32,000 bases of DNA from assembly GCA_041651335.1 (NCBI GenBank), contig JBAZJL010000002.1, positions 1-32,000 on the forward strand, in the 5' to 3' direction. The notes under the pieces were generated by a model that was given only the letters and a program-made list of their open reading frames with translations, was not told where the DNA came from and searched no databases. Below are positions 1-18,852 of the stretch, piece after piece. Origin of the DNA: Minisyncoccota bacterium (GTDB taxonomy: Bacteria; Patescibacteriota; Minisyncoccia; Minisyncoccales; Minisyncoccaceae). The translations under genes were made by a program, and so were the position numbers. How positions within the stretch are numbered: the first letter of the stretch is position 1; each line of letters begins with the position of its first letter.

Positions 1-3000
1 CTTGATCAGAATATCTATAAAATTGTAAATATTTTTCATAATATCCATTTTGAGAAGCTAGGGTAAAATTAGAAGTAAGGGCGCTACCATCAGATAGAAC
101 CGTAATCGTTGTTCCGTTTGTTCTTAATTCATAAGTATGATTTCCGGGGTAGTTAGTACTATTATAAATAGTTGATCCTGAATTTTCTCCAATAAATAAA
201 TCGGGTGTGCCATCATTTCCTGAAAACGTTGACATATTTTGCATAACATTGATTGAAGTTGAATTGGTTAAATAAAACCCACCATACCACCAAAGACCCT
301 GCCCAGAAGATTCATATTGTTTTGCATAATATCTTACGGCATAACCATTTCTTAAATCATATGCCTGGTTACTTTTTAAATAACAACCAGCATAAGAAGC
401 ATACGCAGAAGATCTAGCAGTAACAACTAATTCTCCGCTGACTATTGAAACAGATCCGCCACTATTAGTCCCTTCGCATGTTGCTGTCCATTTGCTTGTA
501 TTGATAGTGCCTGAATTAAAATCATCGAATAAAACAAATGTATTATCTCCACTGCTGACGCTAACTGCTGAAGCATTGCCATAATAAATATAAATAGTAT
601 TACTACCAGAAGCAAGGCTTGGTGCTTTAACCCAAAAAGTGGCAGTTGAAGAATCTGTTTTTGATTCTAACCAATAACTTAATTCCGTTGTTCCATCTGA
701 AGCAGTAAAACGGATATCATCAAAATCAGCTTGCATGTCAGAGTCATAAGCAACAACCACTTTAACTTGATAATTTGTTAAAGCCGATGATGATGAAACT
801 GTTACTGGTTTTCTTTTTGAATAATTTGTTAACCATGGCGAGCTAGCCGTACATGTCCATGCCCATGGACCAGAACCAGAAACAGCAGAAGCTGTTCCCG
901 CAGAACAAAGATTAGTTGTTGGTGCTATTGAAAATGTTCCACCATTAGATGATCCACAAGTGCCAACACCTACTACAACTATATTCGCCGAACAACTTAC
1001 AGCCAAAGAATCATTGCCAATACAAGTCCAAGTGTAAGTTGTTTCTCCAGTGGTGACAGAAGATGCTGTGCCATAGGTACAAAGATTTGTTGAAGGAGCA
1101 GATGAAAATGATCCGCCATTAGATGATCCACAAGTAGTTTTGTAAGTATAACAAGCTGCGTCTACGCCTGGATTATTAGTACAAGACCAAAGCCAAATAT
1201 TACTCGAAAGATTTAAAGTGGTATTGCTTCCATAAGCACAAAGATTGGTTGAAGGCTGATCTCTTCTCACGGTATTGTGATATGTTCCGCAAGCAACTTT
1301 TGGAGCAGAACAACTAGCTGTTGTTCCCCCGCCAGAACCAGTACATGACCAGGTCCAAGAAGAACCAGCATCAGCAAACGAAGTAAATGTTCCAGTAGCA
1401 CATCTTTCGGCGACTGTATCAATTTCACTAGTTGAAGTATATCCATGAGTATTGGCTGTTCCACAAGAACCATTAACAGATGTTAAATTAGCAGAACAGC
1501 TGGCTGTTGTTCCGCCATTGATTCCATTACAAGTCCAAGTCCAAGGTCCGGTTCCAGAAACAGCAGAAGACGTTCCCGCAGAACAAAGATTAGTTGAGGG
1601 CGCTGTTGAAAATGTTCCACCATTAGATGATCCGCAAACACCGTTAACTGTTCGGCTGGCTGAACAACTAGCTGTTGTTCCCCCGCCAGATCCAGTACAT
1701 GACCAGGTATAAGTTGAAGCATTGGTTGTTACTGATGTTGCGCTTCCCGCAGAACAAAGATTAGTTGCTGGTGCCGTTGAAAATGTTCCACCATTAGATG
1801 ATCCGCAAGTGCCATTAACAGGCACTACTCTAGTCGCTGAACAGTTGACTGCCAAAGAATCATTACCAGTACAAGTCCAAGTATAGGTTGTTTCTCCAGT
1901 AGTGACAGAAGATGCTGTGCCATAAGTACAAAGATTAGCTGAAGGAGCAGACGAAAACGATCCGCCATTAGATGATCCGCAAGTAGTTTTGTAAGTATAA
2001 CAAGCTGCGTCTACGCCTGGATTATTAGTACAAGACCAAAGCCAGACATTACTCGAAAGATTTAAAGTGGTATTGCTTCCATAAGCACAAAGATTGGTTG
2101 AAGGCTGATCTCTTCTCACGGTATTGTGATATGTTCCGCAAGCAACTTTTGGAGCAGAACAACTAGCTGTTGTTCCCCCACTAACCCCAACACAAGACCA
2201 AGACCAAGAAGAGGTATTGTCTGTAAATGATCCGCTAAATGTTCCTGCTGAACATCTTTCCGCGGCTGTATCAATATATGATGTTGCTTGATATCCATGA
2301 GCATTAGCTGTTCCGCAAACACCATTAACTCTACTGCAAATACTAAATGTGCTTATGTTTCCAATCACATATTCACGAATTAAATAAATATCATCAAATT
2401 CTCCATCACCATTTCCATTAACGTCGATTAAATTTAATGGCAATGTTTCTATTTGAGAAAATGCTACTTGCACATCATAATAATTAATAGATCCATTTTG
2501 GCTAGTATCTCCATAAGAACCACAAGGAATTGAACGGCTTAATTGATTAGAGCTACAAGAAGCTGTTGTTCCACCATTAGAGCCTGCACAAGTCCAGCCA
2601 AAGGTTGTTGCATTGGTTGTTACTGAAGAAGCAGTACCTGTATTACAAAGATTAGTTGGCACATCATAAGAAGATTGGCCATTAGCAGAACCGCAAGAGC
2701 CGTTCACTACTATCAATCTAGTTGCCGAACAACTAGCTGTTGTTCCGCCATTTGAACCTACGCAATTCCACGTGTAAGTTGTGTCTCCAGTTGTTACTCC
2801 TGTTTCAGTTCCTTGATAACAAAGATTACTAGAAGGAGCAGAGGTAAATGAACCTCCGCTAGAGGGACCACAAATTCCATCAATTGGTGTGGCGCCCTCA
2901 CCACCCATTAACCAAATCATGTCTGCACCCTCATAAGACACTACCGTATAATAACAAGTTTTACTTGTACCTCCATTGTGTCCACTACAATTAGCAACGC

Positions 3001-3616
3001 CGACGCCAGAAGGCAAATCCAAATTTGTTGTTTGAGTTCCTTTCTTACATATATTCCCCATACATTCGTTTGTAACATATGCGCCTGCATTCTGCGAAAA
3101 AATTGTACCACAAAGGGCGGTTCGCCTAAAAGCCCAGGTCAGGGTGCATTCAGCGTCTATCTTTTTTGGAGCAGAACAACTAGCGGTTCCGGCCCCATTA
3201 GCGCAAGACCAGTTAAAAATAGTTGTATAAGAAATCGGAGAGCCAGTATAAGGCACCTTTATTCCGCTCTCGGTAACACTAGAAGGAGTTCCTGTGTTAC
3301 ATAAAGCAGTTGGCGTGGTATAAGTTGCTACTCCATTAGCTGATCCACAAACAGGAGGTGACTCATAAGTATATGGAGCATAACACGCAACCATTGTTGG
3401 TGTTCCCCCAACACATAGCCACATCCATTGGTCGCCTTCAAGAGTAACTGATCCCGATGATCCGCTACTGCAAAGATTAACTGTTGGCTCTACCGGCCAT
3501 GATTGTTGTGTTGCTGTTCCGCAAGCAGCAGCTAAAACATTCCCACTGCTAAAAAACAAAAATACAAAACAGCTGGCAATAAAGAAAATTTGTTTGAGCT
3601 TGTTATTAAACCACAT
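1..3616 (-). CDS. Large secreted Cys-rich repeat surface protein. The C-terminus lies beyond the window edge (at least 1205 codons visible). It has a signal peptide, about 13 copies of a ~55-aa Cys repeat, a dockerin-like Ca-binding pair, a DUF2341-like domain and a LamG/concanavalin-like region.
   Basis: Not in the ORF track because there is no stop inside the window. The reverse-strand ATG at 3616-3614 opens MWFNNKLKQIFFIASCFVFLFFSSGNVLAAACGT. I read this frame by eye with no stop down to position 2 (...YLQFYRYSDQ), and both ends are in the same phase. No minus-strand sub-ORF in this frame is listed in the track, which is consistent with one open frame. The repeat pattern is NG.CG..NG..F...P..NLC..G..S.V....W.W.C.G..GG.T.SCSA. 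Dockerin-like motifs YGDTSQNGSINYYD and DVNGNGDGEFDD lie at about 2370-2525. The DUF2341-like stretch is RKPVTV...NYQVKVVV...DFDDIRFTASDGTTELSYWLE...FWVKAPSL...IYIYYGN at about 575-840. It is followed by DNTFVLFDDFNSGTINTSKWT. Confidence 0.8.
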   Translation of the reverse strand, partial: MWFNNKLKQIFFIASCFVFLFFSSGNVLAAACGTATQQSWPVEPTVNLCSSGSSGSVTLEGDQWMWLCVGGTPTMVACYAPYTYESPPVCGSANGVATYTTPTALCNTGTPSSVTESGIKVPYTGSPISYTTIFNWSCANGAGTASCSAPKKIDAECTLTWAFRRTALCGTIFSQNAGAYVTNECMGNICKKGTQTTNLDLPSGVGVANCSGHNGGTSKTCYYTVVSYEGADMIWLMGGEGATPIDGICGPSSGGSFTSAPSSNLCYQGTETGVTTGDTTYTWNCVGSNGGTTASCSATRLIVVNGSCGSANGQSSYDVPTNLCNTGTASSVTTNATTFGWTCAGSNGGTTASCSSNQLSRSIPCGSYGDTSQNGSINYYDVQVAFSQIETLPLNLIDVNGNGDGEFDDIYLIREYVIGNISTFSICSRVNGVCGTANAHGYQATSYIDTAAERCSAGTFSGSFTDNTSSWSWSCVGVSGGTTASCSAPKVACGTYHNTVRRDQPSTNLCAYGSNTTLNLSSNVWLWSCTNNPGVDAACYTYKTTCGSSNGGSFSSAPSANLCTYGTASSVTTGETTYTWTCTGNDSLAVNCSATRVVPVNGTCGSSNGGTFSTAPATNLCSAGSATSVTTNASTYTWSCTGSGGGTTASCSASRTVNGVCGSSNGGTFSTAPSTNLCSAGTSSAVSGTGPWTWTCNGINGGTTASCSANLTSVNGSCGTANTHGYTSTSEIDTVAERCATGTFTSFADAGSSWTWSCTGSGGGTTASCSAPKVACGTYHNTVRRDQPSTNLCAYGSNTTLNLSSNIWLWSCTNNPGVDAACYTYKTTCGSSNGGSFSSAPSTNLCTYGTASSVTTGETTYTWTCIGNDSLAVSCSANIVVVGVGTCGSSNGGTFSIAPTTNLCSAGTASAVSGSGPWAWTCTASSPWLTNYSKRKPVTVSSSSALTNYQVKVVVAYDSDMQADFDDIRFTASDGTTELSYWLESKTDSSTATFWVKAPSLASGSNTIYIYYGNASAVSVSSGDNTFVLFDDFNSGTINTSKWTATCEGTNSGGSVSIVSGELVVTARSSAYASYAGCYLKSNQAYDLRNGYAVRYYAKQYESSGQGLWWYGGFYLTNSTSINVMQNMSTFSGNDGTPDLFIGENSGSTIYNSTNYPGNHTYELRTNGTTITVLSDGSALTSNFTLASQNGYYEKYLQFYRYSDQ

Positions 3617-3646
3617 ATTTTTTTAATTATTTTATTTATTGCTTTT

Positions 3647-5693: not shown

Positions 5694-6959
5694 TTATTCT
5701 TCTGATTCTTCTGCTATTTCGCTCTCGTTAATCTCGCCATCTTCTGACTCTTCAACATCCAAAGAATCTTGATCGCTTTTTACATCCAGTTTCCAGCCAG
5801 TAAGCTTGGCTGCTAAACGAACGTTTTGTCCATCCTTGCCGATTGCTAAAGATAATTGATCTACTGGAACAACTACGATTGCTGTATTCTTGGGCAATGT
5901 TTTTACTTCAATTACTTTTGCTGGAGATAAGGCATTGGTAATATATTTTACAACATCATCAGAATATTCGATAATGTCTATTTTTTCTCCACCAAGCTCG
6001 GAAATCACAGCAGAAACTCTTACCCCGCGCTGACCAACCATGGCTCCGATTGGATCAACTCCTTCTGCTAATGAGGCAACTGCTATTTTTGTCCGATTCC
6101 CAGGCTCTCGAGCAATTGATTTTATTTCTATTTGATTGCTTGATATTTCTGGAACCTCTAATTCAAAAAGTTTAGAAATTAATTTTGGATATATTCGAGA
6201 TAATAAAATAACCGGACCCCTTGGAGTGGTATCAACCCTTAAGATATATAATTTTAAACGTTGCCCTTCTTTATAAAATTCACCCCTAATTTGTTCTTCT
6301 TTTGGTAAAACACCTAAGCTTTTTCCAATATCAAAATAAATATTAGGCCCTTCGATTTTTTGCACAATCCCAGAAACAATCTCCCCTTCTTTTGATTTAT
6401 ATTCTTCGATTACCGCATCTTTTTCTGCTTCTCTTATTTTTTGTAAAATTACTTGTTTGGCGGTTTGAGCAGCAATTCTGCCAAAATCTTCTTTTTGGTC
6501 AACTGGGATTATCTGTTCTTCGCCAACTTTTAATTTTTGAGCCCCTGCTTCTTCAATTAAAATATGCCTTTCTGGATTATATCTTACTCTTCTTTGAACT
6601 TCTGAACTTTGAGGAATTTCTTCAATATTTAATTCTGATTCTGTGGGACGATAGCTATCTTTAATTTCAAAATCAAAAGAATATTTTTCTTCTAATGGTT
6701 GTTCTGTGTCCCCTTCTTTTGGCTCAACTGGTTCGGGAATATAAACAATTGTGTCGTCTACTACTGATTTTGTTCGCCAAAAATCAACCTTTCCTGTTCG
6801 AGGGTCAATTTTTGCTTTTATTATTTGACCTTTTTGACCATATTCTTTTTTATAGGCCGAAGCCAAAGCATGTTCTACTGTTTCTAAAACTTTTTCTTGA
6901 GATAATCCTTTTTCTTCGGCAATCTGCGTAATTGCAGATAAAAATGACTGAAAATCCAT
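5694..6959 (-). CDS. nusA: Transcription termination/antitermination factor NusA
   Basis: 421 aa. The N-terminus is MDFQSFLSAITQIAEEKGLS. The S1 domain contains GEIVSGIVQKIEGPNIYFDIG. The KH domains contain DPIGAMVGQRGVRV and LSLAIGKDGQNVRLAAKLTGWKLDV. It has an acidic tail. Confidence 0.95.
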   Translation of the reverse strand: MDFQSFLSAITQIAEEKGLSQEKVLETVEHALASAYKKEYGQKGQIIKAKIDPRTGKVDFWRTKSVVDDTIVYIPEPVEPKEGDTEQPLEEKYSFDFEIKDSYRPTESELNIEEIPQSSEVQRRVRYNPERHILIEEAGAQKLKVGEEQIIPVDQKEDFGRIAAQTAKQVILQKIREAEKDAVIEEYKSKEGEIVSGIVQKIEGPNIYFDIGKSLGVLPKEEQIRGEFYKEGQRLKLYILRVDTTPRGPVILLSRIYPKLISKLFELEVPEISSNQIEIKSIAREPGNRTKIAVASLAEGVDPIGAMVGQRGVRVSAVISELGGEKIDIIEYSDDVVKYITNALSPAKVIEVKTLPKNTAIVVVPVDQLSLAIGKDGQNVRLAAKLTGWKLDVKSDQDSLDVEESEDGEINESEIAEESEE

Positions 6960-8714: not shown

Positions 8715-8785
8715 GGGCCCGTAATTAAACGGTATAATACTACTTTCGCATAGTAGCGTTAGGAGTTCAATTCTCCTCGGGTCCA
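8715..8785 (+). tRNA. tRNA-Ala (anticodon CGC)
   Basis: Hand-folded cloverleaf. Acceptor GGGCCCG/CGGGTCC includes the G3:U70 Ala identity pair. D stem is ATTA/TAAT. Anticodon stem is CTACT/AGTAG with loop TTCGCAT. T arm is AGGAG-TTCAATT-CTCCT. Discriminator is A and no CCA is encoded. The gene starts on the base after the cca stop codon. Confidence 0.9.
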
Positions 8786-8807
8786 CTTTTTATTATTATG
8801 TCCGCAT

Positions 8808-8875
8808 ATTAAATTATGTGGACATAATATAGAAAAATTTTGTCCAGATTTGTCCACAAACAAATTATCTGGACA
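8808..8875. promoter_or_regulatory. Cluster of DnaA-box-like TGTCC(A/G)CA / TGTGGACA motifs (left cluster)
   Basis: TTGTCCACA at 8850-8858 matches TTATCCACA at 8/9 positions. TTGTCCAGA at 8840-8848 and TGTGGACAT at 8817-8825 each match at 7/9. Weaker TGTCCGCA and CTGGACA motifs are also present. Confidence 0.4.
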
Positions 8876-8879
8876 TTCC

Positions 8880-8950
8880 CGGGATGTAATATAAAGGCAT
8901 TATGCAGGCTTCGGGAGTCTGTAATCTGGGTTCAATTCCCAGCATCCCGA
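8880..8950 (+). tRNA. tRNA-Pro (anticodon CGG)
   Basis: Acceptor is CGGGATG/CATCCCG. Anticodon stem is CAGGC/GTCTG with loop TTCGGGA. T arm is CTGGG-TTCAATT-CCCAG. Discriminator is A and no CCA is encoded. Confidence 0.88.
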
Positions 8951-9265
8951 CCCATTATTTCACTGGGAATTGAAGGCGGAGGGCCGACGGGCCCGAGCCC
9001 GGCCTGACCGAAACTTCACCAGAAGTTTACGCGAAGGCAATTCCCAACATCCCGACCCATTATTTCACTGGGAATTGAAGGCGGAGGGCCGACGGGCCCG
9101 AGCCCGGCCTGAGCGAAACTTCACCAGAAGTTTACGCGAAGGCAATTCCCAGCATCCCGACCCATTATTTCACTGGGAATTGAAGGCAAAGGGCCGACGG
9201 GCCCGAGCCCGGCCTGACCGAAACTTCACCAGAAGTTTACGCGAAGGCAATTCCCAGCATCCCGA
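8951..9265 (+). repeat. Three tandem 105-bp units. Each holds a GC-rich three-helix module plus a copy of the last 18 nt of tRNA-Pro.
   Basis: CAATTCCCAGCATCCCGA occurs at 8933 (inside the tRNA), 9038 (one mismatch), 9143 and 9248, giving a period of 105 bp. The modules lie at 8963-9047, 9068-9152 and 9173-9257. Confidence 0.95.
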
Positions 9266-9324
9266 CCATTAGTTTTGTTGAGAATTAAGGGCAAATGGCC
9301 GATTAAGACCAAGTCAAGGCCTAA

Positions 9325-9395
9325 GGATCCGTAATTTAATGGTAAAATACTGCTTTCACACAGCAGCGACATGAGTTCGATTCTCGTCGGATCCA
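9325..9395 (+). tRNA. tRNA-Val (anticodon CAC)
   Basis: Acceptor is GGATCCG/CGGATCC. D stem is ATTT/AAAT. Anticodon stem is CTGCT/AGCAG with loop TTCACAC. T arm is ATGAG-TTCGATT-CTCGT. Discriminator is A and no CCA is encoded. Confidence 0.9.
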
Positions 9396-9461
9396 CATAA
9401 AAACACTAAAATATGCATAAAAATAGCGTTTTTTGTTAAAATTAATGAATTTTTATTAAAA

Positions 9462-9493
9462 AATAGGGATTTTAAAATAAAATCCTATTTTTT
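9462..9493 (+). terminator. AT-rich hairpin plus T-run; likely terminator of the tRNA Ala-Pro-Val cluster
   Basis: AATAGGGATTTTA-AAA-TAAAATCCTATT forms 12 bp with one bulged G and runs into TTTTTT. An A-run upstream means it could act in both directions. Confidence 0.45.
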
Positions 9494-9521
9494 ATATTCA
9501 ATCCAATGTCGCACAATATTA

Positions 9522-10285
9522 ATGTTCCACGTAGAACATATTGATTTTTAGATACCCCTACGTATTTTAGAGACGAATGATTAGCTGTTTCAGACAAAAT
9601 GAAAATATTTTAGAAAACATTTCTCCTAAAAATCATTAATCATTTAAGATGTTGTTTGTTTTATTGTTTAAAAATTAATGATGTTCCACGTGGAACATTC
9701 AATTTTTATGCTCTTAAAACATATGTTTATTGATGATCATGGTTTTGGGACAAAATTACATTTTAAAAAACTTTTGCTTTCCTAAAAATCATTAATCATT
9801 TAAGGTGCTGTTATGTTATTATTCTGTAAAATTACGTGTTCCACGTGGAACATTAATGTTTTTTATAGATTAAAATGCCATATTATTAATCATCTATGTT
9901 TTTAAGGAAAAATGTTTTCTAAAATATTTTCATTTTGTCAAAAATCATTAATCATTTAAAGTGTTATTTGTTTTATTGTCTAAAAATTAATGATGTTCCA
10001 CGTGGAACATTAAACTTATATATACTTAAAACTTACAATCATTGATGATCATGGTTTTGGGACAAAATTACATTTAAAAAAACTTTTGTTTTCCTAAAAA
10101 TCATTAATCATTTAAGGTGCTATTATGTTATTATTCTGTAAAATTACGTGTTCCACGTGGAACATTAATGTTTTTTATAGATTAAAATGCCTTATTATTA
10201 ATCATCTATGTTTTTAAGGAAAAATGCTTTTCAAAATATTTTCATTTTGCCTGAAACAGCTAATCATTCGTCGCTAAAATACGTA
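9522..10285. repeat. AT-rich repeat block with five regularly spaced GTTCCACGTGGAAC palindromes, alternating ~156-bp units (A-B-A-B), bounded by 68-bp inverted repeats
   Basis: Palindromes lie at 9522-9539 (one mismatch), 9681-9698, 9837-9852, 9993-10010 and 10149-10164. The marker AAAAATCATTAATCATTTAA recurs at about 9628, 9783, 9939 and 10095. The inverted repeats at 9559-9626 and 10218-10285 differ at about 6 of 68 positions by my count. Confidence 0.9.
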
Positions 10286-10336
10286 AAAACATAAAATTTT
10301 TAATAAAAAACACTAAATAATCTACTATAGTCTTTA

Positions 10337-10470
10337 TGTGGACATAAAATGTTACTTAAAACAAACATTATGTCCACTAATGTCCACTAAATTTTAATGG
10401 ACAAGGTATGTGGACAATTATGTGGAAAAACAATGATTTATGTGGACAAATCCGGACATATTATTTGGAC
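10337..10470. promoter_or_regulatory. Cluster of DnaA-box-like TGTGGACA / TGTCCAC motifs (right cluster)
   Basis: Three boxes match TTATCCACA at 8/9 on the minus strand: TGTGGACAA at 10409-10417, TGTGGAAAA at 10421-10429 and TGTGGACAA at 10441-10449. TGTGGACAT at 10337-10345 matches 7/9. There are also two TGTCCACTAA motifs at 10371-10390 and weaker GGACA motifs. Confidence 0.4.
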
Positions 10471-10559
10471 ATTCTTATTGTTTAAAATAAAAACAAAAAT
10501 TAAGTGGAAATAAAATATTTTGTAATTTTGTCTAATTAAGATATAATTTTAATAAAAAC

Positions 10560-10961
10560 ATGGCTAATTGTTTTAAGGTTGGAAAAATAGGGGAATTAAT
10601 TGCTGAAAAATATTTACAAAAAAACAACTATCAGATAATAGATAGAAATTTTTATTTAATAAGCAAAACAACGAATAAAAAAATAGGGGAAATAGATTTG
10701 ATTGCGAAAAAAAATAAAACCCATATCTTTGTAGAAGTAAAAGCAACTTGCAAAAAGGGCCTAAAAATACCATTAGAGGGTAAAATAAATAAGAAAAAGA
10801 AGAAAAGAATGATTATTGTAAGCGAGGCCTGGCTTTTAAAAAACAAATTGGGCTTTACCATCCCTTGGCAAATTGATATAATCACTATTGAAATTAATTT
10901 GATGGATAAAAAAGCTAGAGTCAAACATTATCAAAACGCAATTGAAGATATAAAAAAATAA
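10560..10961 (+). CDS. yraN: YraN-family (UPF0102) endonuclease-like protein
   Basis: 133 aa. It contains GELIAEKYL, GEIDLIA and FVEVKA. Its stop overlaps the plsY ATG (TAATG). Confidence 0.75.
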   Translation: MANCFKVGKIGELIAEKYLQKNNYQIIDRNFYLISKTTNKKIGEIDLIAKKNKTHIFVEVKATCKKGLKIPLEGKINKKKKKRMIIVSEAWLLKNKLGFTIPWQIDIITIEINLMDKKARVKHYQNAIEDIKK

Positions 10962-11557
10962 TGGAAAAACAACTAATTTTTATTTTTTTCTTAATCGCTG
11001 GATATCTATTAGGATCAATTCCTTTTGGCTACATTATTTCAAAAACAAAAAATATTGATATTCGTAAAAAGGGGAGTGGAGCCACGGGCGCAACCAATGT
11101 TTCTCGTTTTTTAGGACTAAAATATGCTATTTTAGTAGCAGTTTTAGATATTTTAAAAGCTATTATTCCAATATTTTTTGCTAAGTTTTATTTTCAGCCA
11201 GGAATAGAATTGGCCTTGATTTCCATTGCTCCAGTTTTAGGCCACATTTTTCCGGTTTGGCTTAATTTTAAAGGAGGGAAAGGGGTTTCTGTTATTTTTG
11301 CTTCTATAATTATGGTGATTGGATGGAAATATTCATTAATTATTTTGGCTTTTTGGGTTTTATTTTTATTCATTATTAAGATTATGAGCTTAACAAATAT
11401 TCTTCTTTTCTTAATCCTGCCTTTTCTTTTCTGGTATTTAACTCATTCTTATATATATGTAGGTCTGGGAATTTTTTATGTTTTGATTATCTGGTGGGCT
11501 CATCGAGAAAATATCAAACGATTATTGCAGGGAACTGAGCCAAAAATTATAAAATAA
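10961..11557 (+). CDS. plsY: Glycerol-3-phosphate acyltransferase PlsY (acyl-phosphate dependent), paralog 1
   Basis: 198 aa polytopic membrane protein. It contains LLGSIPFGYIISK, KGSGATGATNV and GHIFPVWLNFKGGKGVS. Confidence 0.9.
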   Translation: MEKQLIFIFFLIAGYLLGSIPFGYIISKTKNIDIRKKGSGATGATNVSRFLGLKYAILVAVLDILKAIIPIFFAKFYFQPGIELALISIAPVLGHIFPVWLNFKGGKGVSVIFASIIMVIGWKYSLIILAFWVLFLFIIKIMSLTNILLFLILPFLFWYLTHSYIYVGLGIFYVLIIWWAHRENIKRLLQGTEPKIIK

Positions 11558-11576
11558 AAATTTTAAAATCCTAATA

Positions 11577-12134
11577 ATGTTTTCTTTATTCTATTTTTTA
11601 TCTATATTTTATTTTTTTATTCCCGCTTATATTGCTAATTGCATTCCGCCTCTTTTGGGTAAAATTAAATTTTTAGATTATCCTTTGGACAACAACAAAA
11701 TACTCTGGGGCGCGCCGATTTTAGGTAGCCATAAAACTTGGCGGGGATTAGTTGCCGAGCTAATTTCTTGTAGCTTATTTACTTGGATCTTCTTTGAAAT
11801 AAATCATTATTTCCAGTCTGGAATTTATGAAAATTTAGGATTTTCTTCTTACTATGAATTTGGCGGGCTTGCTTTTGGCACGCTTTTGGGGACAGGTATA
11901 ATTTTTGGAGATGTTTTTTTTGCTTTTATAAAAAGACGGCTTCGCCTTCGGCCTGGTTTTCCTTTTGTTCCTTTTGACCAAACTAATTATGTAATTGGAG
12001 CCTTTCTTTTTGTTGAACCCATCGCTCATTTTGGTTTTAATTTTTGGGCTATTCTATTCTTTTTAACTTTTTTTATTCATATTATTTTTAATCGGATTGG
12101 GTATAATTTAGGCTTGCACAAAGCAAAATGGTAA
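11577..12134 (+). CDS. CDP-archaeol synthase-like (CarS/DUF46 family) membrane cytidylyltransferase homolog
   Basis: 185 aa polytopic protein. PAYIANCIPPLLGK...YPLD...LGSHKTWRGL fits the DUF46/CarS pattern as I recall it. Confidence 0.65.
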   Translation: MFSLFYFLSIFYFFIPAYIANCIPPLLGKIKFLDYPLDNNKILWGAPILGSHKTWRGLVAELISCSLFTWIFFEINHYFQSGIYENLGFSSYYEFGGLAFGTLLGTGIIFGDVFFAFIKRRLRLRPGFPFVPFDQTNYVIGAFLFVEPIAHFGFNFWAILFFLTFFIHIIFNRIGYNLGLHKAKW

Positions 12135-12163
12135 TATAAGATAAATTAGCCTTCAAAAAAGGC

Positions 12164-12829
12164 ATGAATTCATATTTTATGCAAAATATTTTTCAAATAA
12201 TCTCTCAAGCTTTTATTATTAATGCCTCTAATTTGATTTGGGGTATTTTTATCTTACTGGCCGGATGGTTTGTTTCTGTTAAAATTAGAAACATGGCTAT
12301 TGATATTTTTAATAAAATCAGACTCAACCAAATGGCAAAAACTTTGGGCTGGGAAACATTTTTTGATCGCTATGATGCTCATTTAAATATTGCAAAGTTT
12401 TTTGGGGCAATCATCGAAGCTCTTTTCCTTATTATGTTTTTTACGGTTTTCTTTGATATTATTGGTTTAAATCAGTTCAATTCGGTTTTAATGTCTATTA
12501 TTAGCTTTTTTCCGAATATCCTGATTTCAATGATAATTTTCATTTTCGCGATTTTTATCGCCAGCTTTTCAAAAAAAATAGTTTTAGTTAGCTTGGAAAA
12601 AGAAAAAATAACTTATTCCGGAATTTTAGGAAATATTATTTCTTCTGCTGCTTGGATTCTAGCTGTTTTAGCAATCTTGTATCAATTAAATATTGTTCCT
12701 ACCTTGATTCTTAGTATTTTTATTGGCTTCGTCGCCTTAATTGTTATTACTTTTGGTTTAGCTTTTGGGCTTGGCGGCAAAGATTTAGCAAAAAAATTAT
12801 TAGAGGGGTGGGAAGAAAAAATGAAATGA
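12164..12829 (+). CDS. Integral membrane protein of unknown function (4-5 predicted TM helices)
   Basis: 221 aa with long hydrophobic segments. It ends with a TGA stop, which shows that TGA is a stop codon in this genome. Confidence 0.6.
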   Translation: MNSYFMQNIFQIISQAFIINASNLIWGIFILLAGWFVSVKIRNMAIDIFNKIRLNQMAKTLGWETFFDRYDAHLNIAKFFGAIIEALFLIMFFTVFFDIIGLNQFNSVLMSIISFFPNILISMIIFIFAIFIASFSKKIVLVSLEKEKITYSGILGNIISSAAWILAVLAILYQLNIVPTLILSIFIGFVALIVITFGLAFGLGGKDLAKKLLEGWEEKMK

Positions 12830-12834
12830 TAACA

Positions 12835-12860
12835 AAAGAGGAAACCCATTTCCTCTTTTT
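12835..12860 (+). terminator. Terminator-like hairpin between the membrane-protein gene and the fakA-like gene
   Basis: AAAGAGGAAA-CCCA-TTTCCTCTTT forms a perfect 10-bp stem followed by TT. The next ATG is 6 nt downstream. Confidence 0.4.
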
Positions 12861-12865
12861 AACCT

Positions 12866-14653
12866 ATGGAAACACTTACTTATCAGGAGCTGAAAAAAAT
12901 GTTTGTTTTCTCTGCGGAAAAAGTAGAGAGAGACAAAGAACAAATAAATAAAATAAACGTCTTTCCTGTTCCAGACCAAGACACGGGAAGCAATCTTGCT
13001 GCCACGCTTATTGGAATAAAACAAGCAATTGCGGAAAAAGAATTCAAAGGAATGGAAGACTTTGGAGAAACGGTTTTAGACGCTGCCTTAACTGCAGCCC
13101 AGGGGAATACCGGCATAATTTATACTGGTTTTTTGGCTGGATTTATCCCTGCGCTTGATAATAAAGACCCTCAAGCCAAAGATTTAGGCAATGCTTTTAC
13201 TAAAGGATATGAACGGGCCAAAGATTCTATTCAAAACCCAAAAGAGGGAACCATCTTAGACGTTATCAAGGCTTTTGCCGAAACCTTTAATCAAAGCGCT
13301 CAAAACGAAACTGATATTACCAAGCTATTTTTAGAGGCATTTAAATCTGCCAACACTGCTTTATTGGAAACACCAAATAAAATGGAAATTTTAAAAAAAG
13401 CCGGGGTAGTTGATGCCGGTGGCTTAGGTTTTCTTATCATCCTAGAAACATATCTTGATGTTTTACTAGAGAGGTCAGAGGCTTTTTCTGCTGTTAAACC
13501 AGCAATTCTTCGCGAAGAAGAGTCAGCAACAAAAAAGTTTGTTCAAATCTTGTCCAATCGCTACGAAGTTGTTGCTTTAATGCGCCGAACTGATACCAAA
13601 GAATCGGAAATGAGAAATCAGCTTAAAAATTTGGGAAACTGCCTGGACATTATTCAAATAGGCGATCGAACAAAAATTCATATCCACACCGACGATCCTT
13701 ATGACGTTCGAGATATTATTTCAAAAATGGGAGCAGTGGAAAATCTTAGAATTCAAGATATGGCCATGGAAATAGTGGGCGAAGAATCGATTGTAAAAGA
13801 TGTTTCTATTGGAATTGTAATTGACGAAAGAGCAGGATTAAGCCAAAAAATTATTCAGCACTATGATATTGAAGTTATTCCTTTTCGAATAAGCTGGCCC
13901 GAAGAACAACAATTAGAAGGTGAAAATGTTTGCGAAAAAATAAAACATGCTCAAAAAAAAGGGTTGCACAATCGGCCAAAAATAAATCCAATTTCTCCAG
14001 AATTTTTTATGGAATCATTTAAAAAACAACTGGAAAAATTTGAAAACGTTATTTGCATTGTCAGCAGTAGCAAACTTTCAAATAATTATCTTTCTGCCTT
14101 AAAAGCAAAAAGTATGCTAAGCTGGAATCAGAAAGAAAAGATTTTTATAATCGATTCACGACAAATAAGCGCTGGTCAATCCTTGGCAGTTTTAGAAGCA
14201 ATTGAACTGATTAGAGAGCAAAGAAAAATAAAAGAAGTGGTCGCCAGATTGGAAAAAATAATTCCCCAAATTCATTTTTCTGGAATTTTAGAAAACGATC
14301 GCTGGGAGAAAAAGAAAAAATTACCTTCTTGGTTTCAAAAAGAATCTCAAAAAGAATATCTGCTTATCGAAACAAGAGCTGGCCGAATAATCCCAACCCA
14401 AAAAATCAGATCAGAAGATTTTGCCGGAATCCTTTTTAACAAAATAGAACGTTTCGCCCGCCGAGATTTGCAATCTGGAAAAAAAATACGAGCAGTTATT
14501 GCCCATGCCGACAATCCCGAACAAGCGGAAAAGCTAAAAGCTGGATTAAAAACAACAAAAAAGGCTGATATTTCTTTTATCGGAATAACTGATCCAGTAA
14601 CCAGTATTAATGCCTGCCCTGAAAGTTTATTTGTGGGTTGGATAATAAAGTAA
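12866..14653 (+). CDS. fakA: DAK2-domain fatty acid kinase subunit (FakA/YloV-like) with a C-terminal DegV-paralog domain
   Basis: 595 aa. The N-terminus carries INKINVFPVPDQDTGSNL, the DAK2/YloV signature. The C-terminal ~280 aa start IGIVIDERAGL...IPFRISWPEE and contain AHADNPEQAEKLK, which closely resembles the two downstream DegV proteins. Confidence 0.8.
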   Translation: METLTYQELKKMFVFSAEKVERDKEQINKINVFPVPDQDTGSNLAATLIGIKQAIAEKEFKGMEDFGETVLDAALTAAQGNTGIIYTGFLAGFIPALDNKDPQAKDLGNAFTKGYERAKDSIQNPKEGTILDVIKAFAETFNQSAQNETDITKLFLEAFKSANTALLETPNKMEILKKAGVVDAGGLGFLIILETYLDVLLERSEAFSAVKPAILREEESATKKFVQILSNRYEVVALMRRTDTKESEMRNQLKNLGNCLDIIQIGDRTKIHIHTDDPYDVRDIISKMGAVENLRIQDMAMEIVGEESIVKDVSIGIVIDERAGLSQKIIQHYDIEVIPFRISWPEEQQLEGENVCEKIKHAQKKGLHNRPKINPISPEFFMESFKKQLEKFENVICIVSSSKLSNNYLSALKAKSMLSWNQKEKIFIIDSRQISAGQSLAVLEAIELIREQRKIKEVVARLEKIIPQIHFSGILENDRWEKKKKLPSWFQKESQKEYLLIETRAGRIIPTQKIRSEDFAGILFNKIERFARRDLQSGKKIRAVIAHADNPEQAEKLKAGLKTTKKADISFIGITDPVTSINACPESLFVGWIIK

Positions 14654-14657
14654 TTTT

Positions 14658-15548
14658 ATGCTTATGGAAAACTCTTTAGAAAATAAAAAAAATATTGGAC
14701 TGATTGCCGATGAAATGGGAGACTTGCCCGAAGACATGGTTATGGCCAATGAAGTTTCGATTGTAAAATTTAAAATAGATTATGGAGAATTGGAGTCTTT
14801 TCCTGGAAACGTTTATCAAAAAATAAGAGAGGGGGAAAAAAGGGGATTGCCTTCACTATTAAAAACTTCCCAACCATCAATTAATGATTTTTTAAAAATT
14901 TTTAAAGAAAAGCTTCAAAATTTTGAAAAGGTTATTTGTGTCACTTTTTCTTCAAAAATATCAGGCGCTTATAACTCTGCTATTCAAGCAATTAAATTTT
15001 TACCAGCAACAGACCAAAAAAATATTTATGTTTTAGATTCTCTTCAAGGAAGCGGAGCCGAAGGATTGATTATTTTAAAAGTAGCAGAAATGATTAAAGA
15101 GGCTAAATTAAAATTCGAAGAAATTATTGAAGAAATCCAAAAAAATCTAAATAATTTCCGCTTAGTGGCCACTTATGACAAGCCTAAATGGATTGAAGCA
15201 AGTGGACGCTTGCCAAAATTTCTGCCTCTTGCCTTAAATCAAGCGGAAATTCGTAATATTAAACCTATTTTTACTATTAAAAACGGAAAACTAAGCATTA
15301 TCGGCATTAAAAAAAATATCAATGGATTGGGCCAAGCAATTTTTGAAGAATTCAAAAAACAAACTACCAACATTACCACCAAAATCAAGGTGGCAATCAA
15401 CCACGCCGACAATCCCGAACAAGCAGAAAGATTAAAAGGCTTAATCAAAACTTTACCAAACTGCGAAATTGCTTATGTAAATCTTGCCTGTTTCACTATT
15501 GGATCCCATACTGGTCCTGGAACAATGATTCTTTCCTGGCAACAATAA
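14658..15548 (+). CDS. DegV-family fatty-acid-binding protein (FakB-like) 1
   Basis: 296 aa. It contains TSQPSINDF, FSSKISGAYNSA, HADNPEQAERLK and IGSHTGPGT. Confidence 0.88.
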   Translation: MLMENSLENKKNIGLIADEMGDLPEDMVMANEVSIVKFKIDYGELESFPGNVYQKIREGEKRGLPSLLKTSQPSINDFLKIFKEKLQNFEKVICVTFSSKISGAYNSAIQAIKFLPATDQKNIYVLDSLQGSGAEGLIILKVAEMIKEAKLKFEEIIEEIQKNLNNFRLVATYDKPKWIEASGRLPKFLPLALNQAEIRNIKPIFTIKNGKLSIIGIKKNINGLGQAIFEEFKKQTTNITTKIKVAINHADNPEQAERLKGLIKTLPNCEIAYVNLACFTIGSHTGPGTMILSWQQ

Positions 15549-15579
15549 AATAAATATAATTTTATTAATAAATAAAAAT

Positions 15580-16458
15580 ATGAAAAATACTACCATAATC
15601 ATCGGTGATAGCGCTCCTATGACGCCAGAAATAGTAGAAAAATTCGGATTCAATATAGTTGAATTCAAAATTGATTGGCCAGAAGAAGCTGGAATTTTTG
15701 GAAAAAATCTTTTTGAAAAAATGCGCGAAGCAAAAAGAATGAACGTTAAAACAACGCCCAAAACTTCTCAGCCTTCTATTGGCGCTTTTAAAAAAGCTTA
15801 TGAACAAGCTTTTAAAAAAGCTCCCAATGTTTTGGCAATTACTATTAGTTCTGGAATTTCCGGTACTTATAATTCCGCGATCCAGGCAAAAAAAATGTTT
15901 AGCGCAGAAGAACAAAAAAGAATTTTTGTAGTCGATTCTTTTAATGCTGATGCTGCCGAAACAATGCTTGCAATCAAAGCTGCAGAAATGGACGAAATTG
16001 GCATGGAAGCTGAAGAAATTGCTAAAAAAATTGAAAGTTTAAAGCCTCAAACAAAATTATTTGGAATGATTGAAAGCCCTTATTGGCTTGAAGCCGGAGG
16101 CAGACTAAGCCATCCAATCGCCGTGCTTTTAGAACAAATGCAAAAAATAGGAATGAGACCGTTATTGTCAATTATTGATGGAGTAATTAAGCCAGCTAAT
16201 TTAAAAATGCAGGCCAAGGATACGGCCAATGCTTTATTTAAACAAATCGAGGAGCTTGTTAAAGAGCCGTTAGCCCAAGGAAAAAAAATAAGCATCGGAA
16301 TCTCTCATTCCGACACTCTATTCGAAGCAGAAAAATTAAAAGATTTAATTATTAAAAACTTTCCAGAAATAAAAATAGAATTTTTAACCACTATGGGTCC
16401 AGCCATTGGATCGCATACTGGTCCAGGAACTTTAATTTGTTGTTTTGTTGAAGATTAA
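15580..16458 (+). CDS. DegV-family fatty-acid-binding protein (FakB-like) 2
   Basis: 292 aa. It contains TSQPSIGAF, ISSGISGTYNSA and IGSHTGPGT. Confidence 0.88.
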   Translation: MKNTTIIIGDSAPMTPEIVEKFGFNIVEFKIDWPEEAGIFGKNLFEKMREAKRMNVKTTPKTSQPSIGAFKKAYEQAFKKAPNVLAITISSGISGTYNSAIQAKKMFSAEEQKRIFVVDSFNADAAETMLAIKAAEMDEIGMEAEEIAKKIESLKPQTKLFGMIESPYWLEAGGRLSHPIAVLLEQMQKIGMRPLLSIIDGVIKPANLKMQAKDTANALFKQIEELVKEPLAQGKKISIGISHSDTLFEAEKLKDLIIKNFPEIKIEFLTTMGPAIGSHTGPGTLICCFVED

Positions 16459-16475
16459 TAATATTATTTAAAAAT

Positions 16476-17198
16476 ATGGCCTTATTTCCAATTTTGTTAA
16501 TTATTGCTATTTTCTCTTATCTTCTTGGCTCTATTCCTTTTGCACTTGTTTTCAACAAATTAATTTTTAAACAAGATCCTCGTCAAACTGGATCAAAAAA
16601 TTTAGGAGCTTTAAATACTTTAAGAATTAGCACAGAAAAAAAAGGAAAAATAATTGGAGCCCTGTCTTTTTTAATTGTATTTCTCTTGGATGCAGGTAAA
16701 GGGGTAATTGCTGTTTTTTTCGCTCAAAAATTAGCCTTAGCCACAATTACTAATCCTCTTTTACTTGGCCCGGAAGGAACTTCTGTTATAATTTTAGTTG
16801 CTTCGATGGTTGCTGCTTTACTTTCAGTTGTTGGCCATAATTACTCGCTTTATCTTAAATTCAAAGGCGGTCGAGGAGCGGCAACCTTGTTTGGTATTAC
16901 TTTATTTTTAAATTGCCAACTTGCTTGGCTTTGGGCTGGTATCGTTCTTTTAGTAATAATTATTGGAGAAATTTTAGCTGGCCATAAATTTAATAAAAAA
17001 TTAATTCCCCAGGCTATAAATAATCAAATTTTGGGACGTTTGATTGGAGAAATCCTAGGCTTAGGATTAATTTATTTTCTTAATCCTTATATTTTTGCTA
17101 TTGTTTGTTTGCCCTTATTGCCAGTGCTTTTAGCCCATTCTGATCGCCTAGAAGAACAAATGAAAAAAATTAAAGCAAAAAATTACTTAGCAAAATAA
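16476..17198 (+). CDS. PlsY-family acyltransferase, paralog 2
   Basis: 240 aa. It contains LLGSIPFALVF, GSKNLGALNTLR and GHNYSLYLKFKGGRGAAT. Confidence 0.75.
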   Translation: MALFPILLIIAIFSYLLGSIPFALVFNKLIFKQDPRQTGSKNLGALNTLRISTEKKGKIIGALSFLIVFLLDAGKGVIAVFFAQKLALATITNPLLLGPEGTSVIILVASMVAALLSVVGHNYSLYLKFKGGRGAATLFGITLFLNCQLAWLWAGIVLLVIIIGEILAGHKFNKKLIPQAINNQILGRLIGEILGLGLIYFLNPYIFAIVCLPLLPVLLAHSDRLEEQMKKIKAKNYLAK

Positions 17199-17199
17199 A

Positions 17200-17865
17200 A
17201 TGCCTCAACTTTTATTATATTTTTGTTTTTTTGTTTTTTCTTATCTTTTGGGATCAATTCCTTTTAGTTATTTGATTACAAAAATTTTTACTAAAAAAAA
17301 TGTTTTTGAATTAGGTTGGAAAAAAAGTTCGGCCAGCAATGTTATTAAAAACATTGGAAAATTACCAGGAATTTTAGCTTTTTTATTGGATGTTGGTAAG
17401 GGATTTTTAGTGGTTTATTTGGCTCAACAATTGCAATTTTCTTCTTTTCTTCAAGCCTTGGCTGGAATTTGCGCAATCTTAGGACACAATTGGTCTATTT
17501 TTGTAAAAGGCAAAGGAGGAAGGGGTTTGGCCACTTTAGTTGGCGCTGTAATCGGGTTTTCTCCTGTTTTTCTTTTTATTATTGTTATTCCTTGTATTAT
17601 TTTTACTTTTATTTGGACTGCTTCAATCGGCACGATTTTATCTTTAGTGTTTGGAGTTTTTTTGGGTTTTGCTTTTGCAAAGTGGCAAGCGCCTGGATTT
17701 TTAATTTTGATTTCTCTTCTGCCAATTTTTATTAAACGACTAAGTCCGATTAAAGAAATAAATAACATTACTGATCAAGGGGAAAAAAGAGCATTAATCG
17801 AAAACAGACTTTTGTTTGATCAAGACACGGTTCCCAGCTTTCGCATTAAATTTTTTAAAAAATAG
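17200..17865 (+). CDS. PlsY-family acyltransferase, paralog 3 (divergent N-terminal motif)
   Basis: 221 aa. It contains LLGSIPFSYLITK and GHNWSIFVKGKGGRGLAT. The GSGN.GATN motif is degraded to KKSSASNVIKN. Confidence 0.65.
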   Translation: MPQLLLYFCFFVFSYLLGSIPFSYLITKIFTKKNVFELGWKKSSASNVIKNIGKLPGILAFLLDVGKGFLVVYLAQQLQFSSFLQALAGICAILGHNWSIFVKGKGGRGLATLVGAVIGFSPVFLFIIVIPCIIFTFIWTASIGTILSLVFGVFLGFAFAKWQAPGFLILISLLPIFIKRLSPIKEINNITDQGEKRALIENRLLFDQDTVPSFRIKFFKK

Positions 17866-18414: not shown

Positions 18415-18852
18415 ATGATTTTTAATAAAAAATTCAAATATTTTTCTTTTCTTAGCCTTCTTTTTTTGGTTTTTGTTTCTTTTCCAATTATTGCTAATGC
18501 TGCCACTTGTCCAACCTGCGACTCAATTGTTTGTTGTGGAAACGAAGGCCAGCCTGCTTGTACTTTAGCGGATTTGTTTTGTTTAATCCAAAGCATAATA
18601 AATTTCATCTTATGGCAAGTAGTTCCGCCATTAATAGTGATTTGGTTTGCTTATGCTGGTTTTTTAATGCTTACCTCTGGAGGAGATCCTGGAAAAACAA
18701 AACAAGCCAAAGACATGGTTACCGCAGCTTTTATTGGAATAATTCTTGTTTATTCTGCTTGGATGTTAGTTTACTGGTTTATCAGCTTTATCGGAGGGCC
18801 AACTCAAAGTAATTGGCTATTGCAGTTTTTTACTACTCAAACCACTCCTTAA
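18415..18852 (+). CDS. Small secreted two-TM pilin-like protein (TrbC/VirB2-like, the pilin type seen in Patescibacteria) with a Cys-rich N-terminus
   Basis: 145 aa. The signal peptide ends IIANA. Six Cys lie in ATCPTCDSIVCCGNEGQPACTLADLFC. Next come TM1, then LTSGGDPGKTKQAKDMVTAAFIGIILVYS, then TM2. The same core is found in the N-termini of the ORFs at 28789-30096 and 30101-31480. Confidence 0.7.
   Translation: MIFNKKFKYFSFLSLLFLVFVSFPIIANAATCPTCDSIVCCGNEGQPACTLADLFCLIQSIINFILWQVVPPLIVIWFAYAGFLMLTSGGDPGKTKQAKDMVTAAFIGIILVYSAWMLVYWFISFIGGPTQSNWLLQFFTTQTTP

Follow-up and report, generated by a model that had tools for sequence, protein, structure and literature searches.

A non-coding block in the genome of a Paceibacterota bacterium probably serves as a chromosomal centromere, with five closely packed parS sites at which ParB dimers would load. 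We put the probability of this reading at about 80%. The block was analysed within the window, the whole 32,000-nucleotide stretch of DNA considered here, and its palindromes, inverted arms and higher-order units are as follows.

9523 to 9538, unstranded: parS1, TGTTCCACGTAGAACA, departs from the perfect palindrome at one position; external to the left inverted arm
9682 to 9697, unstranded: parS2, perfect TGTTCCACGTGGAACA, the same as P. aeruginosa parS2/parS3
9837 to 9852, unstranded: parS3, perfect TGTTCCACGTGGAACA
9994 to 10009, unstranded: parS4, perfect TGTTCCACGTGGAACA
10149 to 10164, unstranded: parS5, perfect TGTTCCACGTGGAACA
9559 to 9644, plus strand: left inverted-repeat arm, 86 nt, with a conserved 23-bp outer core, TACGTATTTTAGNGACGAATGAT
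10200 to 10285, minus strand: right inverted-repeat arm, 86 nt
9628 to 10251, plus strand: two tandem 312-bp higher-order units, each with two parS and two AATCATT-AATCATT pairs

The palindromes and their likeness to parS

The palindrome TGTTCCACGTGGAACA was matched five times in the window (four exact matches and one with a single mismatch), with 0 matches expected based on 100 window shuffles. The spacings from parS1 to parS5 are 159, 155, 157 and 155 bp, in agreement with the sequence-only reading, which had described five palindromes at a fixed spacing. That reading had also called the palindromes perfect, which holds for four sites and fails for the first copy. The mismatch in parS1, a G-to-A change, also occurs in the orthologous site of a related locus with full synteny (L124), and parS1 is missing from another relative (L126). 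The contig span examined was ~46 kb, comprising the window, ~4 kb to its left (all within a giant repetitive gene, up to the contig end) and ~10 kb to its right; no further full parS site was found in the 32-kb window and the ~14 kb of flanking contig.

The 16-mer TGTTCCACGTGGAACA is identical to the published chromosomal sites P. aeruginosa parS2/parS3 and P. putida parS, and it fits the universal parS consensus tGTTNCACGTGAAACa (PMC4368675 Table 1; PMC7022226 Table 1). The same 16-bp palindrome characterises the origin-proximal parS clusters of P. aeruginosa (parS1-4), C. glutamicum (ten identical sites) and M. xanthus (22 listed sites), the exact counterparts being the two P. aeruginosa sites already named. 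Since the 16-mer is the canonical chromosomal parS, the block most likely serves to load ParB at its several sites. The sequence-only reading had suggested that a dimeric DNA-binding protein binds there repeatedly, with a parS-like function as one option, and this option now appears to be the right one.

By analogy with ParABS, each palindrome would be bound by one ParB dimer, and the bound ParB would close into a CTP-dependent clamp that slides over the neighbouring kilobases. The partition complex would then be moved by ParA and would recruit SMC, and multiple closely packed sites may give a higher loading rate and robust segregation. In C. glutamicum, which has ten identical parS sites, the high number was considered by the authors to have likely evolved for robustness (PMC7083940).

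Origin-proximal parS clusters consist of several redundant sites, mostly intergenic and near the origin, and the block likewise has several redundant sites. It is far more compact than the C. glutamicum cluster, with five sites in 642 bp compared with ten sites in 35 kb (PMC7083940). It also differs from known chromosomal parS clusters in being a tandem higher-order repeat with inverted arms and in not lying beside parAB, with no ParB seen in the ~46 kb. Another point of comparison is the partition site of a plasmid. In the F-plasmid sopC, SopB binds an inverted repeat present in each of twelve 43-bp repeats. The block resembles sopC in its head-to-tail non-coding units, each with what would be one palindromic ParB-family site, and differs in its unit length (156/312 bp), its chromosomal parS consensus, its housekeeping chromosomal flanking genes and the absence of plasmid similarity. 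BLAST of the block against plasmid and phage collections returned no match, so a plasmid or phage origin is not supported.

To place the array among other bacteria, we scanned reference genomes, one per species, for pairs of perfect parS sites separated by 125-155 bp. The scan yielded at least 120 loci in many phyla, many of them dense arrays with up to 26 sites in 1.5 kb; the genome studied here was not among the matches listed. Among the at least 120 parS loci listed, ParB was found within 8 kb in ~50 and ParA in 48; for Patescibacteria, none of the 15 loci among the matches listed had ParB or ParA within 8 kb. Southlakia, a cultured Patescibacterium, encodes ParA/ParB (PMC10633639 supplement), and literature searches on parS or ParB in Patescibacteria or the CPR yielded nothing relevant. 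Very dense perfect-parS arrays were seen in uncultured Bdellovibrionota, Acidobacteriota, Planctomycetota, Myxococcota and Moraniibacteriota (L089 and many other loci among L004-L123). The 26-site case (L089 4518-5998) has perfect parS in ~50-bp and 83-bp steps beside parA-parB. Two MAGs labelled Bdellovibrionales (L034, L111) encode a CCA enzyme 50-54% identical to that of the window beside their parS arrays, as in Moraniibacteriota, and these labels may reflect mislabelling or mis-binning.

Repeat architecture and its history in close relatives

The repeat finder and TRF both reported a 312-bp period in two copies, and 9628-9927 is 93% identical to 9940-10239. The spacers parS2-3 and parS4-5 are 90% identical, and the remaining spacers are mosaics at 71-78%; the ~312-bp higher-order repeat noticed in the sequence-only reading is thus real, and the percentages judged there by eye were roughly right. 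The middle spacer consists of the left half of the right-terminal segment fused to the right half of the left-terminal segment, a structure that tandem duplication of a three-site ancestral element would yield.

The inverted repeats are present as had been described, although each is longer than the 68 bp first given, with arms of 86 nt that are 87% complementary to each other. Their 23-bp core TACGTATTTTAGNGACGAATGAT is kept in inverted orientation in three species (the window, L124 and L126). Tandem AATCATT-AATCATT pairs, also recognised from the letters alone, start at 9631, 9787, 9943 and 10099, each pair 50-51 bp before the start of one of parS2-5. More broadly, there are 13 WATCAT[TC] heptads per block in both the window (9576-10268) and L124 (9068-9760), and in both they are co-oriented on the plus strand except in the left arm. 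Besides the 23-bp arm core, the CCTAAAAATCATTAATCATT module is a conserved element.

No ORF of at least 50 aa was found in 9397-10559, from tRNA-Val to yraN, which extends the absence of ORFs of at least 60 aa reported before, and none of the 25-41 aa ORFs in the block is conserved in the orthologous L124 block. An assembly artefact had been named as something that would overturn the array. The region 9397-10559 is 100% identical in contigs of two separately deposited assemblies, GCA_030154545.1 (NCBI) and ERZ27247363 (ENA), so the block is not an assembly artefact, and a different species has the same architecture. Several short-read assemblies break inside the block, and the block accounts for these breaks.

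Loci of relatives were collected by a metagenome scan with the CCA-enzyme protein, giving 57 related loci. Those most informative about the block are listed here with the identity of their CCA enzyme.

L124, CCA enzyme 87%, full synteny: same tRNAs, both box clusters, both arms and five parS at 169/154/158/154 bp; without the 105-bp repeat
L126, CCA enzyme 73%: same arm cores around two parS, 573 bp apart; ~12 head-to-tail ATGTCCACT boxes upstream, and more boxes abutting the second parS
L127, CCA enzyme 64%: three TGTTTCACGTGAAAC[A/T] sites set among the same three tRNA genes, plus a box cluster; no arms
More distant relatives, CCA enzyme at most 60%: mostly without parS near the gene

A comparison of palindrome, arms and block presence across relatives had been proposed, and it gave a graded picture: the five-site block in L124, arms with two parS in L126, and three parS without arms in L127. 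Relative to L124, the parS 16-mers are 100% identical, the left arm 90%, the right arm 88%, the heptad modules 88%, cluster 2 of the DnaA-box-like motifs 87% and the linkers 47-53%. The parS sites are under purifying selection, and within the ~46 kb they are confined to this one tRNA-rich intergenic region.

The 312-bp copies are 93% identical within the window and 98% within L124, and only 79-81% identical between the two species. Copies that are closer within a genome than between species point to concerted evolution or recurrent duplication, and they indicate that the regular spacing results from duplication and homogenisation and not from a conserved phasing rule. The fixed spacing claimed in the sequence-only reading accordingly stands for the window and L124, where the 312-bp duplication gives ~156 bp, and not for distant relatives (L126 has 573 bp, and arrays elsewhere in Patescibacteria have 30-350 bp). 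The array appears to have grown via tandem duplication of the 312-bp unit from an ancestral state of one to three sites.

The ParB model leaves the inverted arms and the AATCATT heptads unexplained. Their conservation, close to that of the box cluster, suggests that they have a structural role or are bound by a second factor. The heptad differs at one position from WATCACW, the heptad of the omega protein, and this is a lead only. As candidates for the identity of the heptads and arms, the IHF consensus and dif sites gave no fit when compared by eye.

The inverted arms allow other views of the block. It could be a foldback or MITE-like mobile element that is defined by its terminal inverted repeats and carries parS by chance, an alternative raised with the first description of the arms. 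The 86-nt, 87% complementary terminal arms would suit such an element, as would the lack of the block in L127 (64% identity). However, the bases next to the arms show no target-site duplication in the window or L124; across ~46 kb and all 188 fetched loci, the arm core was found at this locus alone; the arms hold the same syntenic position in three species with differing interiors; and there is no plasmid or phage similarity. We therefore consider a mobile element very improbable. The arms might instead be recombination sites that make the block invertible or excisable, perhaps through the adjacent YraN-family nuclease or a distant recombinase. The 23-bp core is indeed inverted at both ends in three species, and a UPF0102/YraN gene lies directly downstream of the block. 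Against this, the block has the same orientation in all assemblies and in both five-site species, outside the left arm all its heptads lie on the plus strand, and the neighbourhood has no recombinase gene; YraN is not known to act as a site-specific recombinase. This explanation is more doubtful still. The least probable is that the palindromes are bidirectional intrinsic terminators, or operators of an unrelated CACGTG-binding regulator. A terminator scan does flag the palindromes, with 7-8-bp stems and T-rich tails (8 sites compared with 1.1 expected), but there are just 3 G-C pairs per stem, and the runs of T are explained by the AT-rich surroundings. Such a role leaves the 16/16 parS match in four copies unexplained. 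No transcribed gene ends within the block, a separate hairpin (9457-9494) directly follows tRNA-Val, and the same 16-mer arrays lie beside parAB or dnaA in many phyla.

Gene context and the origin question

The reading of the block as a parS array raises the question of whether it lies at the replication origin. The features that bear on this are the tRNA genes and the motif clusters around the block.

8715 to 9396, plus strand: genes for tRNA-Ala(cgc), tRNA-Pro(cgg) and tRNA-Val(cac), which frame the region and also flank parS in L124, L126 and L127
8799 to 8875, unstranded: DnaA-box-like cluster 1, 6 motifs, between tRNA-Ala and tRNA-Pro
10337 to 10471, unstranded: DnaA-box-like cluster 2, 7 TGTCCACA-type motifs on both strands (TTGTCCACA variant)
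10472 to 10559, plus strand: AT-rich stretch, GC ~0.18, with a promoter-like TTGTAA-16-TATAAT just upstream of yraN

The minus strand carries, up to 6959, the giant repetitive gene and then clpP, tig and nusA. The plus strand carries, from 7167, the CCA-adding enzyme, tRNA-Ala, tRNA-Pro, a 105-bp tandem repeat, tRNA-Val, the block, yraN, plsY and lipid-related genes. The gene strand thus switches at ~7 kb. Rfam searches at gathering and permissive thresholds matched only the three tRNAs. No ParB, ParA or DnaA was detected by motif scan in the window or in the 57 syntenic loci of relatives (L124-L180), and our own HMMs of ParB and DnaA gave no match in the window, the flanking contigs (L181, L183) or any of the lineage's fetched loci.

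Several other elements of this neighbourhood were observed. The giant repetitive ORF left of clpP (>2552 aa; window 1-3620, minus strand, and L183 10695-18350) is truncated by the contig end. It contains the half-parS TGTTCCAC five times, at 935, 1457, 1613, 1784 and 2567, where it is probably a repeated coding motif. The 105-bp tandem repeat (8933-9271) has 3.2 copies with 97% matches and a GC of ~0.57, compared with ~0.33 for the genome. Its units each end with a copy of the tRNA-Pro(cgg) 3' end, CAATTCCCAGCATCCCGACC, and it may be a small insertion that duplicates this tRNA 3' end; one diverged copy is present in L126 and none in L124. Folded as RNA, one unit reaches -40.4 kcal/mol (z = -3.7) with a closing stem and two hairpins, and it has no Rfam match. 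Downstream of the block (10961-17865, 18415-18852 and L181 1-10000) are three PlsY paralogues, a CarS-like protein, and a FakA-like protein that ends in a DegV domain, with two stand-alone DegV proteins after it. Downstream of these genes is a T4SS-pilin/TrbL-type cluster, which fits a host-dependent Patescibacteria lifestyle.

The window has 23 matches to TGTCCACA-type motifs, a number reached by 0 of 100 shuffles, and 13 of them fall in the two clusters, which together span 212 bp. The motifs are 9-mers with at most one mismatch to TTATCCACA, with TTGTCCACA/ATGTCCACT as the dominant variant, and not the strict consensus. Cluster 1 is kept in L124, and L127 has a similar cluster. Cluster 2 begins 52 bp past the right inverted arm and is 87% identical to its L124 counterpart. 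Among the options offered by the sequence-only reading were origin iterons, and this one survives in part: the DnaA-box-like clusters beside the block are origin-like, and the palindromes themselves are not. The ATGTCCACT motifs of L126 (6558-6690 and 7520-7570) are unusually dense, alternating in 9-bp and 13-bp steps with further copies abutting parS. This relative alone also has, apparently between tRNA-Ala and tRNA-Pro (~5757-6010), a small GIY-YIG-like ORF (MFYVYLIKSKIKNWTYIGYSTNLTKRFREHQKG...), as judged by eye.

There is weak evidence for the AT-rich stretch 10472-10559 as a candidate DNA-unwinding region and/or the yraN promoter. The GC content is 0.18 at 10450-10549, but the whole intergenic region is likewise AT-rich (0.15-0.30). 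Within the window, the cumulative GC skew is lowest near 8 kb, a local minimum that coincides with the gene-strand switch. Since the skew in the window follows the gene strand, it is not independent evidence for an origin.

In the reference scan, two Moraniibacteriota MAGs (L088, L023) have a parS array followed by canonical DnaA boxes and then a Pfam-confirmed dnaA-dnaN, and one of the two has its CCA-enzyme gene 1.9 kb past the dnaN cluster. They were the only Patescibacteria loci fetched in which DnaA adjoins parS. With their arrays close to dnaA-dnaN and the CCA gene, the CCA-enzyme neighbourhood looks like the ancestral origin/centromere region in the clade. These arrays resemble the block in being dense, perfect parS in AT-rich non-coding DNA of Patescibacteria, with adjoining DnaA boxes and a CCA-enzyme gene nearby. 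They differ in that they are followed by TTATCCACA boxes and directly by dnaA-dnaN, whereas the block is followed by TTGTCCACA boxes and then yraN-plsY. They also differ in their spacings of 53-243 bp and in having no inverted arms or AATCATT heptads.

Based on these observations, we tentatively place the array in the replication-origin region, between two TTGTCCACA box clusters and at a gene-strand switch. We see close to even odds that the adjacent clusters are oriC itself, the other possibility being a non-origin DnaA-box cluster. The clustered 9-mers resemble both oriC and non-origin clusters in lying within one mismatch of TTATCCACA, on both strands and by AT-rich DNA, and they differ from both in their dominant variant TTGTCCACA/ATGTCCACT and the absence of an adjacent dnaA. 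The motifs could belong to a non-origin DnaA-box cluster or bind another factor, and they are unlike the TTATCCACA boxes of Moraniibacteriota.

The block could be a centromere array that is not at the origin, with the TGTCCACA clusters being an origin-distal DnaA-box cluster of titration or regulatory function, similar to the B. subtilis DBC, or sites for another protein; we give this somewhat less than an even chance. No dnaA or dnaN lies in the ~46 kb examined (the window and the flanks L181 and L183), the fetched loci of the lineage gave no DnaA match, and adjacency of dnaA to oriC is common in bacteria and not universal. The motif differs from the canonical boxes upstream of Moraniibacteriota dnaA, and the ~12 head-to-tail copies in L126 would be an unusual layout for an origin. 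DnaA-box clusters outside oriC have been described in B. subtilis (PMC3245932). On the other side, the locus is where genes change strand and where the skew has its local minimum, parS arrays adjoin DnaA boxes and dnaA in related phyla, and an AT-rich stretch lies beside the boxes. A more elaborate proposal, which we regard as unlikely, is that, in an ultrasmall CPR bacterium, the block belongs to a module combining centromere and origin. In such a module the box clusters would be a true oriC without adjacent dnaA; the 23-bp inverted cores and co-oriented heptads would bind a second factor, acting as a boundary or roadblock for sliding ParB clamps or as an adaptor; and the array would be homogenised like a miniature satellite centromere.

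Meaning for segregation in Paceibacterota

The ParABS system is already known, and the block, read as a parS array, is a tidy, compact example of it that leaves the understanding of ParABS unchanged. It is of moderate interest for its occurrence in the poorly studied CPR and for its repeat architecture, which shows that a centromere array can expand and yet stay homogeneous via tandem duplication. Paceibacterota (CPR) have no cultured representative, and the searched literature held no description of parS or oriC for them. The block provides a sequence-level marker by which the segregation locus of a Paceibacterota genome, and probably its origin region, can be recognised. Possible uses of such a marker are as an anchor for replication-rate (PTR) estimates and in the design of stable vectors for Patescibacteria.
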